64,000 nucleotides of DNA. It comes from a phage. The DNA lies in the sequence record PV467748.1; one strand, given 5' to 3'. Under the pieces are notes generated by a model. That model saw only the letters and a program-made list of their open reading frames with translations. It searched no databases and had not been told where the DNA came from. Each line of letters starts with the position of its first letter. Position 1 is the first letter of the stretch. Position numbers and translations under genes: made by a program. Below, piece by piece: positions 2,806-20,255 of this stretch.

Positions 2806-3023
2806 TAGTTACTTGAATCGACCTTATAGACCTGTCCGCGGGTTTGGTAAACTTCGCCGTCCCATGTTTCAACTGTGATAGTAACGTACTCTGCAAAAAG
2901 AGGACGTGTATCTGTCCAGAGATAACCATATTCACCTGTGACGAGCGTAACCCAGTACTTTCTCATAAAGTCTCCTTTTGTATGGCACCAATTAGTACCA
3001 TACGTATTTATTACGACATCCAA
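2805..3023 (-). CDS. hypothetical protein (72 aa)
   Basis: ORF only. Confidence 0.35.
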   Translation of the reverse strand: MDVVINTYGTNWCHTKGDFMRKYWVTLVTGEYGYLWTDTRPLFAEYVTITVETWDGEVYQTRGQVYKVDSSN

Positions 3024-4828
3024 GCCTTACGGAGTTGAGGGTCATTACCAAGGAGCATTTCGAACTGTTCTTTCCAATCTTCAGGTAATTGGACAACATC
3101 AAATTTAGGGTCTTGAATCATTCGTCGGTATTCGGCTTTCTCAAGAGAACCGAGACCTTTAATATAACGAATAGAATGTTTTGGTAGAGAGTCCTTAGCT
3201 TTGGTATAACTAGGTACATCATAGAACCATTCCTGTTCTTTACCAACCTGAGCAATGATTACAGGAGTCTTACAGAAACGAATTCGTCCCTGTTCAAACA
3301 ATTCCGGCCACTGACTAAAGAAAGCTAATAACGAAGGATAAATCGAACCAGTACCATCCACATCGGCGTCAGTCATGATAGCAATATTACGATAGTTGGT
3401 TTTATCTGCAGGCTCACCAATAACCAGTCCAGTGATTGCACAGATATCAAACAATTCTTTGTTCTTCATGATATCGGCAGCGGTCATACCCCAGGTATTC
3501 ATAACCTTTCCGCGTAACGGATAACCGCCTTGGAGGTCTTTATTACGAACTTCAATGAAAGGACCCATTGCAGAATCACCTTCCGTAAGGAATAAAGTCG
3601 TATCAGCATCTTTGCCATACATATTGGCTTTAATATGCTTATGGACCTTGGCTTTCAAAGCTTTCTTAGCAGCTTTTGTTTCGGCGGCTTTTTCAGCAGC
3701 GAGTTTACGTGCTAAAGCTGCTTCGACAATAGGCATAATCAACCCATCGACCTTAAGAATAGCCGTTGCAATTTTCTTAGCATCGATTTGGATATGGTTA
3801 CGAATCTCACCAAACGGAGAGGTTAATCGCTCTTTAGTCTGTGAATCAAAACGCATATTGCTCATATCACGAATGAACATGACCATCGTAAGGCATTCTT
3901 TAACACGAGCCTTAGTTACTTCTATTCCTTTATATTTCTTTTTAATACCAGGCAGAAGGTGCTCACAGATATCATCGAACACACATTCAACGTGGTGGCC
4001 ACCATTCTTAGTATGGATATTGTTTACATACGTCAGTTGACGGAACCCGTCCGGAGAAGGAGTAAATGCCATCGAAACATTATCAGTTTCTTGGATTACA
4101 AAGTCTTCACCAAATTGTTTAGCATACTTTTTAAAGTTGCCATCTACTTTTTTACCATTAAAAGTAAATTGAATATCAGGATAAATTACGGCCAGTGTTT
4201 GAAGACGGTCTAATGTAATATCCAGATAAATTTGGGACAGGCTATTTTCTTCGAAATGGTTAAAGTCTGGGGTGAATATAACCGAAGTACCCTTACCTTT
4301 AGATTTCTTAGTAGACCAACCTTTGTTTTCCATTCCATTGGAACAGTTAACAGTAATCTCATTCTCGCCATCAGAGGTGATGCCTGTGAACAAAACAGAG
4401 AAGATATTAGTTAAACTACTACCAACACCGTTCATACCACCTGTCTTACGCTCAGCGTCATCTCCAAAGTTACCACCGGCCTTTGGAATAGTCCATGCAG
4501 CTACAGGACCTGGAATCTGTTCACCGTTTTGGTCAGTAACCATTGCTTGAGGAATACCACGGCCATTATCAGAAACTGAAACCTGATTATTCTTAATTTG
4601 AACATCAATTTTATTTGCGAATTTAAAATTGGTACGAATAGCTTCATCGACAGAGTTATCAATGATTTCGTCAATTAATTTAACCAGTCCAGGAACATAG
4701 TTCACCTGGGTAAAATTACCAAACAGGAATCGACCGTGAGCTTCATTAGCACTTGAGCCAATATACATCCCACTACGTTTTTTGATATGTTCAATGTCGG
4801 ACAGTACTTTAATTTCATTCTTAATCAT
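3011..4828 (-). CDS. 39: DNA topoisomerase II large subunit (GyrB-like ATPase), contiguous 605-aa form
   Basis: MIKNEIKVLSDIEHIKKRSGMYIGS... GHKL ATPase and TOPRIM-like motifs; size matches the fused gp39+gp60 form of T2-type phages. Confidence 0.9.
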   Translation of the reverse strand: MIKNEIKVLSDIEHIKKRSGMYIGSSANEAHGRFLFGNFTQVNYVPGLVKLIDEIIDNSVDEAIRTNFKFANKIDVQIKNNQVSVSDNGRGIPQAMVTDQNGEQIPGPVAAWTIPKAGGNFGDDAERKTGGMNGVGSSLTNIFSVLFTGITSDGENEITVNCSNGMENKGWSTKKSKGKGTSVIFTPDFNHFEENSLSQIYLDITLDRLQTLAVIYPDIQFTFNGKKVDGNFKKYAKQFGEDFVIQETDNVSMAFTPSPDGFRQLTYVNNIHTKNGGHHVECVFDDICEHLLPGIKKKYKGIEVTKARVKECLTMVMFIRDMSNMRFDSQTKERLTSPFGEIRNHIQIDAKKIATAILKVDGLIMPIVEAALARKLAAEKAAETKAAKKALKAKVHKHIKANMYGKDADTTLFLTEGDSAMGPFIEVRNKDLQGGYPLRGKVMNTWGMTAADIMKNKELFDICAITGLVIGEPADKTNYRNIAIMTDADVDGTGSIYPSLLAFFSQWPELFEQGRIRFCKTPVIIAQVGKEQEWFYDVPSYTKAKDSLPKHSIRYIKGLGSLEKAEYRRMIQDPKFDVVQLPEDWKEQFEMLLGNDPQLRKAWMS

Positions 4829-16461: not shown

Positions 16462-16653
16462 TTATATTACGAAAATAGCTTTATCACCATTTGCATCAGT
16501 GACTTCATAGGTATCTTCGTGGTAAAGTGGAATAATCCAAGTCACACCATCATCAGCAATAATATGGATAGCTTCTTGGTCTTTTGATATGATTTCATAT
16601 TCTTCGAATAACTCGAATACAGAAATCTTAGAGCCCGTACACATTGCACTCAT
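16462..16653 (-). CDS. hypothetical protein (~63 aa)
   Basis: ATG at 16653; track start is an upstream TTG. Confidence 0.35.
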   Translation of the reverse strand: MSAMCTGSKISVFELFEEYEIISKDQEAIHIIADDGVTWIIPLYHEDTYEVTDANGDKAIFVI

Positions 16654-16849
16654 ATTGTTCCCTTCTTTCAATCAGTTGGCGATGGGCCTTTTTAAGTTTA
16701 CGAAGCTGGCGCTTAGTCGGCCGTGCAACATAAGCTTGAGTAGTTACTCGTCCAAAAACACCGTACTTAGGTGAAGGAGAATCGATAAAGACTTCCCACT
16801 GGCAGGAGTAACCATATACCGCTTTAGAGAATTGAGTTAAAACAAACAT
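16628..16849 (-). CDS. small basic protein with RPTKRQLRKLKK motif (family member 1)
   Basis: shares xPTKxQxR motif with 17637..17876, 41607..41792 and 48462..48686. Confidence 0.45.
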   Translation of the reverse strand: MFVLTQFSKAVYGYSCQWEVFIDSPSPKYGVFGRVTTQAYVARPTKRQLRKLKKAHRQLIERREQYECNVYGL

Positions 16850-16850
16850 A

Positions 16851-17291
16851 TTAACCTCGATTCATAAAGGCATTAAAAATCTGGTCGTCGATTGAATAAA
16901 CCGGAGCTTCCAGAATTTTCAACAGACTGTTTTTGATATACTTGCTAGGGATATCCATATTAACGAGGTCGTTCAATTCGTTGTCCGGGTGGATATCTTT
17001 AAATTCAAACCCATCAAACTCAACCTTGTCAGGAATACCATCGGCGAAAAAATAAACCAATTGGTGCATTGTATTGCATGAAAATAATTTAGACCTCACC
17101 GCAATAAGTTCTTGCCAATGGTTTAATTCTCTGTTAAGAAGTTTATGAGCCATTGTAATTCGATCATCGCTATCAACAAGAAAATAACCTAGGTATTGGT
17201 GGTCGTCGCTCCAAAACATCCTGTATGCTTGTGCATTTGGATTTTTACAACGAAGCTTTTTGATAACTAAATTCCTGTTAATCTTATTCAC
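16851..17291 (-). CDS. hypothetical protein (146 aa)
   Basis: ORF only. Confidence 0.45.
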   Translation of the reverse strand: MNKINRNLVIKKLRCKNPNAQAYRMFWSDDHQYLGYFLVDSDDRITMAHKLLNRELNHWQELIAVRSKLFSCNTMHQLVYFFADGIPDKVEFDGFEFKDIHPDNELNDLVNMDIPSKYIKNSLLKILEAPVYSIDDQIFNAFMNRG

Positions 17292-17577
17292 CTGTCACCT
17301 CTTTAACGATATTTTTGTTATCGAAATTAGCATCACAGTACAGAACATAGTTATACTGCATAACACCACTAGAAGCCAATTGGTCAGATACTTCTTTAAC
17401 CATATCAGGACGGTCGCGTTTAGTGATGTTCATGATATCAGCATAAATCTGATGCTCAACCGCTTCTTGATCGGCAGTCATAGACCATTCACAAAGGTCT
17501 TTATCCAATCCGGCAGTTACCGGAGCCGTGCCACATGATGCTACTGTAAGGATTGCTGCGATTAATAACTTTTTCAT
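17284..17577 (-). CDS. sp: Spackle periplasmic superinfection-exclusion protein
   Basis: 97 aa; signal peptide; DKDLCEWSMTADQ...VMQYNYVLYCD matches remembered T4 Sp. Confidence 0.85.
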   Translation of the reverse strand: MKKLLIAAILTVASCGTAPVTAGLDKDLCEWSMTADQEAVEHQIYADIMNITKRDRPDMVKEVSDQLASSGVMQYNYVLYCDANFDNKNIVKEVTGE

Positions 17578-17597: not shown

Positions 17598-17640
17598 ATA
17601 GGTCTATAGTATCACTACCATAGACTGATGTAAACTTTAT
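17598..17640 (-). promoter_or_regulatory. T4-type early promoter upstream of sp
   Basis: minus GTTTACATCAGTCTATGGTAGTGATACTATAGACC; SD GAGGAG before the sp ATG. Confidence 0.6.
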
Positions 17641-17876
17641 TTTAACGAATCTTCCAAATAAATTTTACGGAATTTACGTTTGGTCTGACGAATCTGACGC
17701 TTAGTAGGCTTCACAGGAAATTCGAAGAACTCTACATATTCCTGTTCGTAATCATTATGACCTACCGAAAGAACTAGTTCCCAGTTGTTTACATTTCGTT
17801 GGATAAACATCTTATGCTTACCAAAAGATTTATTCCAAAAAGAACTAGGAGTTGGCTTCATTAATACAATATTCAT
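17637..17876 (-). CDS. small basic protein with KPTKRQIRQTKRK motif (family member 2)
   Basis: motif shared with three other small ORFs. Confidence 0.45.
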   Translation of the reverse strand: MNIVLMKPTPSSFWNKSFGKHKMFIQRNVNNWELVLSVGHNDYEQEYVEFFEFPVKPTKRQIRQTKRKFRKIYLEDSLK

Positions 17877-18017
17877 TTATTCCTCGTCTTCATGTTTATG
17901 AGCAATTTCTTCGAATTCATGGTCACAATCTAAACAGGTTGCGTTGTCCCAAGCATCAAATACTGCCTGGTCTTCACATACCGAACAACCACATACTACA
18001 CATTCAACCTCTTCCAT
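17877..18017 (-). CDS. small Cys-rich protein (46 aa), not in the ORF track
   Basis: MEEVECVVCGCSVCEDQAVFDAWDNATCLDCDHEFEE...; TAAATG junctions on both sides; SD GAGGA. Confidence 0.35.
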   Translation of the reverse strand: MEEVECVVCGCSVCEDQAVFDAWDNATCLDCDHEFEEIAHKHEDEE

Positions 18018-18221
18018 TTAGATTTCCTCAATGCGGGCATCATATTCAAAAACTTTATTATCATTAACAAAGGCTTTCACTAGTGCATTATTCACTTCTG
18101 CATACTGCACTGTAACCCATTCAATCATTTTTTGGTCACTAACATCCAGCGCAGTTTCTTTGGTAAACATATTACCATTTTCAAACCAACCAATAAACAC
18201 TACGTTCTCTAATTTATACAT
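18018..18221 (-). CDS. dmd: Dmd-like antitoxin (copy 1)
   Basis: VVFIGWFENGNMFTKE...VQYAEVNNALVKAFV matches remembered T4 Dmd. Confidence 0.75.
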   Translation of the reverse strand: MYKLENVVFIGWFENGNMFTKETALDVSDQKMIEWVTVQYAEVNNALVKAFVNDNKVFEYDARIEEI

Positions 18222-18416
18222 TTAGATTTCCTCAATACGGGCATCATGTTCATAAACTTCTACGTCGTCGACATACGCCTTAACCAAAATACTATTGACT
18301 TCAGCGAATTGGGTAGTCACCCACACGATATCGTTTTCACGCACTGAAGCTTCTTTGGTAGAGGTGTCGCCGTTATTAAAACAGCATACAAATTTTACCT
18401 TAACCAATTTAGTCAT
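18222..18416 (-). CDS. dmd: Dmd-like antitoxin (copy 2, diverged paralog)
   Basis: VKFVCCFNNGDTSTKE...TTQFAEVNSILVKAYV; both copies end ...DARIEEI. Confidence 0.7.
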   Translation of the reverse strand: MTKLVKVKFVCCFNNGDTSTKEASVRENDIVWVTTQFAEVNSILVKAYVDDVEVYEHDARIEEI

Positions 18417-18746
18417 TTAGATTTCCTCGCAGAAGGCCCATTCAGCATGATAAACCGTAGCACCTTTAGTATCATTTAAACAAACCACATCTACCGGAGC
18501 AATTACACGATAAAGACGGGGTTCTCCTCCCACTGAACGAGCTGCACGTCCAGCATAAATCTTAGCCAAACCGATATCTTCAGTAAAGAACACTCGATTC
18601 AGGTTTTTCTTACGACCGGTTTCAGACAAAACTCCTGTTTCCTCAGGAGGACAAAGCATATTACCGATATTAGCAACACTACAACTTCCATGGTAATACA
18701 CTTTATATTCTGCTTTACAGTCGATGGTTTTCATTTTGTTCTCCAA
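18417..18746 (-). CDS. hypothetical protein (109 aa) with YYHGS motif
   Basis: own promoter at 18752-18790; T4 has no gene between 41 and dmd as far as I recall. Confidence 0.45.
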   Translation of the reverse strand: MENKMKTIDCKAEYKVYYHGSCSVANIGNMLCPPEETGVLSETGRKKNLNRVFFTEDIGLAKIYAGRAARSVGGEPRLYRVIAPVDVVCLNDTKGATVYHAEWAFCEEI

Positions 18747-18751
18747 GTTGA

Positions 18752-18790
18752 TAGGTCTATAGTATCATGCCTACAGGAGATGTAAACCCT
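18752..18790 (-). promoter_or_regulatory. T4-type early promoter
   Basis: minus GTTTACATCTCCTGTAGGCATGATACTATAGACC. Confidence 0.6.
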
Positions 18791-18816
18791 TAAAACAAAA
18801 AGGAGCCGAAGCTCCT
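18788..18816 (-). terminator. intrinsic terminator downstream of gene 41
   Basis: aggagc-cgaa-gctcct hairpin followed by a U-rich tract. Confidence 0.55.
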
Positions 18817-20255
18817 TAAAATTTGATAGATGCTGCTAAATCGTCCAAATCACTTCTATTAACACGCGTCTGTCTATTGACCTCGGCTTGACGATTCATC
18901 TCACCTGTAGCCTCACGTACGGTGTTCACTGGGCCTGGGTTGGAATCGTCTTCAACTTCGTACCAACGTTGATTTCCTTTCTTAACACCAATCTTAAATT
19001 TGTTGTAGTAGCTCTTATCACCATAACGAGATTTAAGCTGCTTAACCATCTGCATACCCATCTGAGCAAATTCTTCTGTCTCGACCACACCTAACATGAA
19101 GTCTGCAGTGTGTGCAATACCAAAGGATTCAGCGATATCAGCCATATCGATTTCGGCTGCAACGTTCGCGCCACGAGTAGTCTGGGCCGCAGTCCACAGC
19201 AATAATTTCTTCTCTACTGCAAGGCCACGTAGTTCTTCGGCAACCATCTTAATCAATCCGTAACTGTTTTCAGAGAAAACTTTCGTACGAGACGATGCAC
19301 AGATGGCCAAGTAGTCAACGATAACGACCTGTGGGACAAAGTTTTGTTTGAGCTTGTATTCGTTTAATAATGCACGGAATGTATCGGCATTCGCACCGCC
19401 GGTAGGATACTGTTTAATCTTTAAACGACCTAAGGTAGCAGTTGAACGCCATTTATCCATCTTAGCTTTATATTCGGGCCACGAGACATGACCATCATCG
19501 ATATCATCCAGTGATACGTCCAGAAGGTTGGCATCAATACGCTTAGCACATACTTCCTCTGCCATCTCCATGGAGATATAAAGAACATCGTAACCGGATT
19601 GAAGGTAATCAGCAGCCAATGAACAAAGACCAAGAGACTTACCTACGTTTGTTCCTGCCAACAATACGTTTTCAGTACCAAACTCGGCACCGCCCTTGGT
19701 AATCTTATTCAGAATATTAAGTCGGAATGGAACTTTACGTGCTTTATCGGAATAACTTTTGAATCGTTCTTCATAGTCATCCATCCAGTCATGACCTAAT
19801 TCAGAATCGAAACAAATCGATAATGCATCACGCATGATATCTGGAATAGCACCAATACCTGGAAGTTTTCTATTTTGTTGCTCAACCGGAAGGTCGGCAT
19901 TAGTTTGGATTTCAATGATTTTTGAAGTTGCATTATACATCGCTGCTTTCTGAACGTATTTCTCCGTCTCTTTAACCAACCATTCTTGGTCTTCAGGTCC
20001 GGCATTCAGCGAACTTAAAAGCTCTTTAGCGCCTTGGTGTTCAACTTCTGAAAGCGTACTGTTATCTAATGCAATGCTCAATGCGTTCTTAGAAGGCACT
20101 GCATTATATTCATTGACGTGTTTTTTAATTTCTTTGAAAAGGGTCTTTGCAGGACCCTGGTCAAAATAAGAATCATTCATATAAGGCCAGACCTTAGTGA
20201 AATAATCACTATTGCCTAACAGTTGAGCCAAAATAGTTTCTACCACTTCCACCAC
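18816..20255 (-). CDS. 41: replicative DNA helicase (DnaB-like)
   Basis: 479 aa; collinear with remembered T4 gp41 (KVWPYM...GPAK, LLAGTNVGKSLGL). Confidence 0.9.
   Translation of the reverse strand: MVEVVETILAQLLGNSDYFTKVWPYMNDSYFDQGPAKTLFKEIKKHVNEYNAVPSKNALSIALDNSTLSEVEHQGAKELLSSLNAGPEDQEWLVKETEKYVQKAAMYNATSKIIEIQTNADLPVEQQNRKLPGIGAIPDIMRDALSICFDSELGHDWMDDYEERFKSYSDKARKVPFRLNILNKITKGGAEFGTENVLLAGTNVGKSLGLCSLAADYLQSGYDVLYISMEMAEEVCAKRIDANLLDVSLDDIDDGHVSWPEYKAKMDKWRSTATLGRLKIKQYPTGGANADTFRALLNEYKLKQNFVPQVVIVDYLAICASSRTKVFSENSYGLIKMVAEELRGLAVEKKLLLWTAAQTTRGANVAAEIDMADIAESFGIAHTADFMLGVVETEEFAQMGMQMVKQLKSRYGDKSYYNKFKIGVKKGNQRWYEVEDDSNPGPVNTVREATGEMNRQAEVNRQTRVNRSDLDDLAASIKF

Follow-up and report, generated by a model that had tools for sequence, protein, structure and literature searches.

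Tandem, anciently diverged dmd antitoxin alleles in an early-gene block of a Dhakavirus-like phage

Introduction

To our knowledge, Dmd was the first phage-encoded antitoxin shown to neutralise a toxin-antitoxin (TA) defence of the host. In phage T4, Dmd (gp61.5; chain B of structure 5HY3) is the antitoxin of RnlA and LsoA, and its mechanism has been described together with the binding groove of RnlA (PMC8266594). The gene is part of a block of anti-TA functions, in which dmd has been assigned to RnlA/LsoA and 61.4 (tifA), whose product inhibits ToxN, to that toxin (PMC9391042), while 61.2 (adfA) has been assigned to DarT (PMC11825919). Here we analyse the corresponding locus in a 64-kb window of phage DNA (the whole stretch of 64,000 nucleotides from sequence record PV467748.1), where two dmd genes, hereafter dmd-A and dmd-B, lie in tandem next to a gene coding for a small protein predicted to have an ADP-ribosyltransferase (ART) fold. 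An initial annotation, made from the sequence of the window, had presented this locus as a candidate counter-defence hotspot with two Dmd paralogues where T4 has one. T4 does have a single dmd, placed directly after gene 41 with no gene between, and RB69 likewise has one; as for the hotspot, it corresponds to a gene block that is already recognised as such in the literature (PMC9391042, PMC11825919).

At the same locus of T4, recombination at microhomologies amplifies dmd-tifA units in tandem (PMC9391042). These amplifications resemble the arrangement described here in their position, in involving a tandem dmd-containing unit and in their link to short-homology recombination. However, the T4 repeats are identical, were selected for tifA dose, are unstable and are offset by deletions elsewhere, whereas in the window long-diverged alleles are stacked once, in an arrangement that is stably inherited in several natural isolates. 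The neighbouring adfA gene offers another parallel: natural AdfA alleles of T-even phages differ in the DarT variant that they neutralise (PMC11825919), which is the logic that we propose below for Dmd-A and Dmd-B, but they swap one for another, and their stacking in one genome is not reported. Concerning the ART, a survey by Iyer, Burroughs, Anantharaman and Aravind (2022) predicted, from gene context only, type II TA systems that combine a p0068-family ART with a Dmd-domain antitoxin in phages of Escherichia, Shigella and Salmonella, and a pairing of Dmd with a Mod-like ART in Klebsiella phages (PMC9503650). The account of the former fits the gene pair of the window and of RB69, where a small ART gene stands directly 5' of a Dmd-domain gene. 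Two Dmd genes are not mentioned there, and the p0068 family may be that of the ART-fold protein described here.

Results

The first 25 kb of the window align end to end with the genomes of Dhakavirus (JS98-like T4-type coliphages), the closest being Escherichia phage fDHCT2 with 94.8% identity. The dmd locus is an early-gene block between gene 41 (helicase) and gene 61 (primase), where every gene is on the minus strand. All four open reading frames (ORFs) listed for it by the initial annotation are present, at 18417-18746 (109 aa if read from a TTG), 18222-18416 (dmd-A, 64 aa), 18018-18221 (dmd-B, 67 aa) and 17877-18017.

The assignment of the two middle ORFs to Dmd is borne out by Pfam, PHROG and solved-chain matches alike. 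Dmd-A and Dmd-B score 58.1 and 73.1 bits, respectively, with the Pfam family PF17587 (Dmd; gathering cut-off 27 bits), and both match PHROG 2102 (E 1e-28 and 5e-33). By phmmer, both also match Dmd chains of known structure, 5hy3_B (T4 Dmd bound to LsoA) and 5i8j_A, with E values from 4e-13 (Dmd-A with 5hy3_B) to 8e-22 (Dmd-B with 5i8j_A). Their layout is also that of the family: these are single-domain proteins of about 60 residues, encoded in an early unit between gene 41 and 61.4/tifA. The likeness to T4 thus extends from the Pfam family and the protein length (60-67 aa) to the gene order (gene 41, dmd, 61.4/tifA) and the early transcription signal, the difference being that there are two dmd genes here and one there.

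Dmd-A and Dmd-B share 54% amino acid identity, and their alignment follows the pattern initially noted, with an N-terminal half that is most diverged and a common ...VKA(F/Y)V(N/D)D...DARIEEI. Each keeps the family core W-x-T-x-Q-x-AEVN-x-x-LVKA. The tail ARIEEI, a C-terminal extension that is encoded by the junction repeat described below, is found in both and is missing from T4 Dmd, RB69 Dmd and the other Dmd clusters. Dmd-B is the canonical allele of JS98 type: it is 100% identical to JS98 Dmd, 67% to RB69 Dmd and 57% to T4 Dmd, and retains the F-x-GWF-x-N-x-x-MFTKE segment and the AEVN-x-ALVKAF helix of the T4 protein. Dmd-A is a divergent allele of WG01 type (86% identity to WG01 Dmd, 97% to fDHCT2 dmd_2); apart from such alleles, its identity to any other Dmd, Dmd-B included, is just 47-54%. 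Its divergence is greatest at residues 10-20, where it has FVCCFNNGDTSTKE against F-x-GWF-x-x-x-x-MFTK(E/D) in T4, RB69 and Dmd-B, the latter being a conserved motif of the characterised T4 and RB69 proteins and no formal criterion of the family. Unlike in T4 Dmd, CCF or GHF replaces GWF in alleles of this type, and T(S/A/T)TKE replaces MFTKE; the window has CCF...TSTKE, while WG01 Dmd has FVGHFANGDTATKE in place of the segment. With Dmd-A as query, a word-indexed search for homologues yielded four proteins only, all of them near-identical. The Dmd family as a whole is very small, since an exhaustive profile search among 1.84 billion representative proteins yielded about seven small clusters at 50% identity, and the two proteins therefore span much of its known diversity.

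The initial annotation spoke of duplicated antitoxins. The presence of two Dmd genes stands, but they do not represent a recent local duplication: the gene bodies of dmd-A and dmd-B share 54-63% nucleotide identity and third codon positions are identical at 22 of 56 sites (39%), Dmd-B has a closer relative in RB69 Dmd than in Dmd-A, and each copy is the sole dmd of other phages. On these grounds we rejected a recent duplication; dmd-A and dmd-B are alleles of the Dmd family that separated long ago. Their 3' ends tell a different story, the last 8 codons being identical at 23 of 24 nucleotides (96%). Genes with saturated third positions but nearly the same tail speak for a recent exchange or homogenisation of that tail.

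Purifying selection acts on both copies. All five tandem genomes (the window plus the four database records named below) have both ORFs intact, and among the three closest of these (window, fDHCT2 and ABTNLsp5) the ratio of nonsynonymous to synonymous substitution rates (omega, dN/dS) lies at 0.04-0.06 for dmd-A and at 0.10-0.17 for dmd-B. With values well below 1 for both genes, we rejected the possibility that either copy is a pseudogene.

By tblastn, Dmd-like sequences occur at 800 places in 795 phage records, 23 of which carry an A-type dmd at 80% identity or more. A probe for the A/B junction recovered the contiguous tandem in exactly four database records, fDHCT2, KIT01, ABTNLsp5 and 04086; the tblastn counts therefore imply a fifth record with two places. 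Two of the four, fDHCT2 (dmd_1/dmd_2) and KIT01, have dmd annotated twice. The tandem arrangement is thus rare yet already deposited, although literature searches on Dhakavirus Dmd, KIT01 and ORF040c retrieved no published discussion of it. Other Dhakaviruses have one allele each, dmd-B alone in those of JS98 type and dmd-A alone in those of WG01 type. The dmd-B of JS98 is 98.5% identical to that of the window and is nested among the alleles of the tandem phages.

KIT01 differs in part of the locus (1696-1960 in its record): it keeps dmd-A and dmd-B and is devoid of the 46-aa ORF and the tifA homologue that follow them in the window. The C-terminus of its Dmd-B is also altered (...ECDYRSNEK against ...EYDARIEEI), and the deletion must therefore have taken away the third junction repeat.

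As for the sources of these phages, many of their hosts are poultry-associated, non-K-12 strains. Carriers of dmd-A, alone or in tandem, come largely from poultry/duck or non-K-12 hosts (O78, DE017, BL21, Salmonella, Shigella), and K-12, which has rnlAB, was the isolation host of several Dhakaviruses with dmd-B alone (dhaeg, dhabil, JS10). This contrast may reflect different toxin targets or an isolation bias.

The boundaries of the two dmd genes share an exact repeat. The 15-mer GAGGAAATCTAAATG, which combines a Shine-Dalgarno sequence, a stop codon and a start codon, is present in exactly three copies in the window, against 0.01 expected. All are read on the minus strand: the first (18414..18428) lies at the boundary between the ART gene and dmd-A, the second (18219..18233) at that between dmd-A and dmd-B, and the third (18015..18029) at that between dmd-B and the 46-aa ORF. 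The second and third copies are embedded in a longer near-identical stretch, GATGCCCGYATTGAGGAAATCTAAATG, with 27 nt common to the end of dmd-A and the end of dmd-B but for one mismatch. In an alignment of seven phages, all boundaries of presence and absence coincide with the junction repeat. The gap in JS98 runs precisely from the end of the ART gene to the end of dmd-A, the first repeat marking its left edge, and that in WG01 runs precisely from the end of dmd-A to the end of dmd-B, with an edge at the third repeat. Such a pattern fits, and suggests, gain and loss of cassettes by recombination at short homologies.

The two dmd genes belong to a unit of five ORFs with zero intergenic spacing, coding for the ART-fold protein, Dmd-A, Dmd-B, the 46-aa protein and a TifA homologue. 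Every start codon adjoins the preceding stop codon, and the Shine-Dalgarno sequence lies within the last codons of the upstream gene. The unit is preceded by a terminator-like intrinsic hairpin, AAGGAGCTTCGGCTCCTT, with a T run (18800..18817, minus strand), which closes the transcript of gene 41 (end at 18816) and is kept in JS98, WG01, KIT01, 04086 and fDHCT2. Just past this terminator we found the separate promoter that had been postulated for the first gene, (G)TTTACA-16 nt-TG-TACTAT (18759..18786, minus strand). It is a sigma-70 promoter of T4 early type, is kept across Dhakaviruses and is the single early promoter that drives all five genes; a GTTTAC -35 element is the signature of T4-type early promoters (PMC1524935).

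In ABTNLsp5, the interval between gene 41 and the ART gene contains an extra gene of 125 aa (2893-3270 in that record), the counterpart of RB69 ORF041c. The insert brings its own terminator and early promoter, and the promoter motif is therefore found on both of its flanks, which fits promoter-cassette-mediated shuffling in the hyperplastic regions of T4-type genomes.

The first gene of the unit codes for the protein with a YYHGS motif, a homologue of RB69 ORF040c (PHROG 2110) that, as initially noted, has no counterpart at the T4 locus. The gene is real, but the 109 aa first given to it are probably too many: a start at the ATG at 18734 is likelier (18417..18734, minus strand, 105 aa), because this ATG is preceded by a GGAG at a distance of 6 nt and the homologues are about 105 aa long. 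The structure prediction that had been proposed for this protein, made with AlphaFold2 and 42 homologues, gave a confident model (pLDDT 86.4) with an ART fold. Arr was the sole confident Foldseek match (prob 1.00, TMq 0.61), and in this model the protein is predicted to be an ADP-ribosyltransferase-fold protein with Arr and Tpt1 as its nearest relatives. Residues Y14-H15-G16-S17 lie on the first strand (13-18), and H15 and G16 are invariant in the 42 homologues; the protein thereby has the NAD-binding H-G-[ST] motif that characterises the ART superfamily. This motif occurs in Arr, Tpt1 and PARP-type ARTs. In the superfamily, the second active-site position is Y or H on strand 2 and the third is E/D/Q or a hydrophobic residue on strand 5; candidates for these residues, taken from the alignment alone, are R47/F49/F50/T51, Y60 and E103, which are invariant or nearly so.

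The closest described systems for this protein are Arr, the NAD-binding domain of Tpt1/KptA and the anti-CRISPR ART AcrF11, but Arr exceeds it in length by about 35 residues, and it has no equivalent of the RNA-binding N-domain of Tpt1. Membership of the Arr family itself was rejected, as both Pfam Arr-ms PF12120 (15 bits against a threshold of 25) and NCBIfam rifampin_ARR NF033144 (12.9 against 130) fall short, although 6 of the 42 homologues match PF12120 (best E 5e-5). Neither the single sequence nor the 42-sequence profile had a sequence match in the PDB.

Among the seven Dhakaviruses, the ART gene shows no nonsynonymous difference, with 5-17 synonymous ones per pair, and its product shares 63-75% identity with homologues of Aeromonas and Acinetobacter phages, which are encoded at quite different genome positions. 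Homologues are found in 610 phage records, including phages of Klebsiella, Acinetobacter and Aeromonas. The initial annotation had made its case for this ORF depend on expression; judging from the absence of nonsynonymous change and the identity to distant homologues, it almost certainly codes for an expressed, functional and strongly constrained putative enzyme. Such conservation is unusually strong for a mobile accessory gene, which argues for a conserved target.

Downstream of dmd-B, the 46-aa ORF (17877..18017, minus strand; PHROG 13952) codes for the Cys-rich protein announced by the initial annotation, with C6xxC9...C28xxC31 and an acidic tail. It resembles a zinc ribbon, with matches to such domains that are sub-threshold only, and 58 phage records have a conserved copy of it beside dmd. 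The last gene of the unit (17637..17876, minus strand) encodes a gp61.4/TifA homologue of 79 aa, with a score of 68.6 bits for Pfam DUF7279 (against a threshold of 24.5) and 47% identity to T4 TifA (E 3e-15). It carries the basic motif VKPTKRQIRQTKRKFRK and has the central basic cluster PTKRQIRQ-x-KR-x-FRK in common with the T4 protein. A second DUF7279/TifA-like paralogue of 73 aa lies at 16628-16849 on the minus strand (67.5 bits, 34% identity to T4 TifA, basic cluster PTKRQLRKLKKAHR), and the block therefore has two TifA-family and two Dmd genes.

Beyond the unit, a second promoter of T4 early type, TTTACA-17-TG-TACTAT (17606..17634, minus strand), lies 5' of sp (17284..17577, minus strand), which encodes the periplasmic superinfection-exclusion protein spackle (Pfam T4_Spackle, 144 bits; 69% identity to T4 Sp). 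The slot of T4 61.2 (adfA) is occupied by an ORF of 146 aa (16851-17291, minus strand) whose last 14 residues, SIDDQIFNAFMNRG, are 100% identical to T4 and RB69 AdfA, while the remainder is unrelated to AdfA and belongs to PHROG 8539; a further cassette replacement, with the 3' junction retained, seems to have taken place here. An ORF of 69 aa listed from a TTG (16462-16671, minus strand) overlaps the 73-aa ORF before it at the latter's 3' end. Its homologue RB69 ORF033c (66% identical) aligns from residue 8, and translation therefore probably begins at the ATG of residue 7 (MSAMCTGSK...). We found no tRNA genes in the window, nor any Rfam matches at gathering thresholds.

Discussion

We favour, with a probability of roughly 0.6, the interpretation that the locus is an accessory early-gene block of a JS98-like Dhakavirus in which stacked dmd alleles cover different toxins and are interconverted through repeats. 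Like T4 Dmd, both proteins would bind an RnlA/LsoA-family HEPN RNase toxin of the host and block it as soon as infection begins. With its canonical GWF...MFTKE segment, Dmd-B probably keeps a T4/RB69-like specificity, and Dmd-A, where this segment is replaced, probably acts on another toxin variant. Carrying both alleles would then let a phage overcome a broader range of hosts, and the adaptation to more than one host toxin put forward by the initial annotation, two antitoxins for two toxins, is plausible from the sequences. Recombination at the identical repeat of 15-27 nt with which the ART gene, dmd-A and dmd-B end would convert the tandem, A-only and B-only states into one another, either by unequal exchange during co-infection, which could stack alleles, or by deletion between repeats, which could drop one.

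Several points weigh against this interpretation. That the replaced segment of Dmd-A directs it to a different toxin variant is a guess from sequence comparison. The junction contains a ribosome-binding site, which could by itself explain why it is conserved. Omega reaches 0.5-1.35 in some pairs of phages, values that rest on very few substitutions. Moreover, the A and B alleles group alike, with the window, fDHCT2 and ABTNLsp5 on one side and KIT01 and 04086 on the other, and such congruence among the tandem phages speaks for a pair that has long been inherited together. The tandem may have arisen by stacking of alleles or from an old duplication followed by losses of one copy.

The old duplication would have taken place in situ in an ancestor of the Dhakaviruses, with Dmd-A evolving faster and subsequent differential loss leaving most phages with B, some with A and a few with both. 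We consider it possible, if rather doubtful. It would account for the ARIEEI tail that sets both alleles apart from all other Dmd clusters, for the congruent groupings and for the nesting of the 98.5% identical JS98 dmd-B among the tandem-phage alleles, and deletion between junction repeats would give exactly the JS98 and WG01 structures. However, the 96% identity of the tail set against saturated gene bodies points to recent homogenisation or exchange and not to shared ancestry, and the greater proximity of Dmd-B to RB69 Dmd than to Dmd-A would need strongly unequal rates. This scenario bears on origin only, and its functional prediction is the same as that of allele stacking. A pure dosage effect, in which two copies with the same specificity only raise the amount of Dmd, has a precedent in T4, which repeatedly amplified dmd-tifA under selection for inhibitor dose (PMC9391042), but there the selected gene was tifA, with dmd carried along, and the amplified copies were identical, whereas Dmd-A and Dmd-B share 54% identity, differ by a remodelled N-terminal segment and are each kept alone in other phages; we hold it to be improbable. 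That one copy is a decaying, functionless relic deserves hardly any credence: a single copy does suffice for most relatives, but both ORFs are intact in five of five tandem genomes with omega well below 1 in the closest ones, both keep the family core, and each is the sole dmd elsewhere.

A further alternative concerns the ART, which may be a toxic effector with one or both Dmds as its antidote or regulator, instead of or besides the inhibition of host RNases. It is in line with the ART plus Dmd-domain antitoxin predicted in enterophages (PMC9503650), with the ART gene abutting or overlapping dmd in a single transcription unit here and in RB69, and with the fact that its neighbour in the window is dmd-A, the divergent copy. 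The adjacency and co-transcription expected of a type II TA system are found, but consistent co-occurrence is not. In T4, dmd directly follows gene 41 without an ART gene, and work on T4 Dmd has established a host target for it (PMC8266594). Klebsiella, Acinetobacter and Aeromonas, whose phages are among the 610 records with the ART, are not among the listed Dmd hosts, and the three examples inspected, Acinetobacter phage 133, Aeromonas phage 44RR2.8t and a Klebsiella Slopekvirus, have the ART gene in other contexts, with unrelated genes 3' of it. Even within Dhakaviruses, its neighbour is dmd-B in JS98-type phages and dmd-A in WG01-type phages. An obligate pairing was accordingly rejected, the ART occurring without Dmd in Acinetobacter, Aeromonas and Klebsiella phages and Dmd without the ART in T4, and we regard the TA-like relation as quite unlikely. 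Because the two often occur apart, we treat the ART as an independent early effector, probably a module with no Dmd partner. A bolder and rather unlikely variant is that Dmd-A has been re-targeted from RnlA/LsoA to a distinct lineage of toxins that is widespread in the hosts of these phages or to the phage's own strictly conserved Arr-like ART, with GAGGAAATCTAAATG serving as a dedicated docking site for cassette swaps. If Dmd-A were aimed at the ART, then ART, Dmd-A and Dmd-B would make up a phage-borne effector with a dedicated regulator, beside a classical anti-RNase antitoxin.

The counter-defence role of the block is already known, and the pairing of ART and Dmd was noted in the 2022 survey. 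What is new with respect to the literature that we searched is the natural stacking of long-diverged dmd alleles, the presence of an exact repeat at all cassette boundaries and the absolute conservation of the adjacent ART. The 105-aa ART-fold protein, with about 600 records of T4-like phages, is arguably a more valuable experimental target than the dmd pair. The two 54%-identical Dmd alleles, each also present alone in sister phages, are a natural comparison for mapping the determinants of specificity, and their tandem allows one to ask whether host range is widened by stacking alleles or by having one generalist inhibitor. Finally, the exact 15-mer at each cassette boundary suggests a simple route by which these phages may exchange inhibitors.

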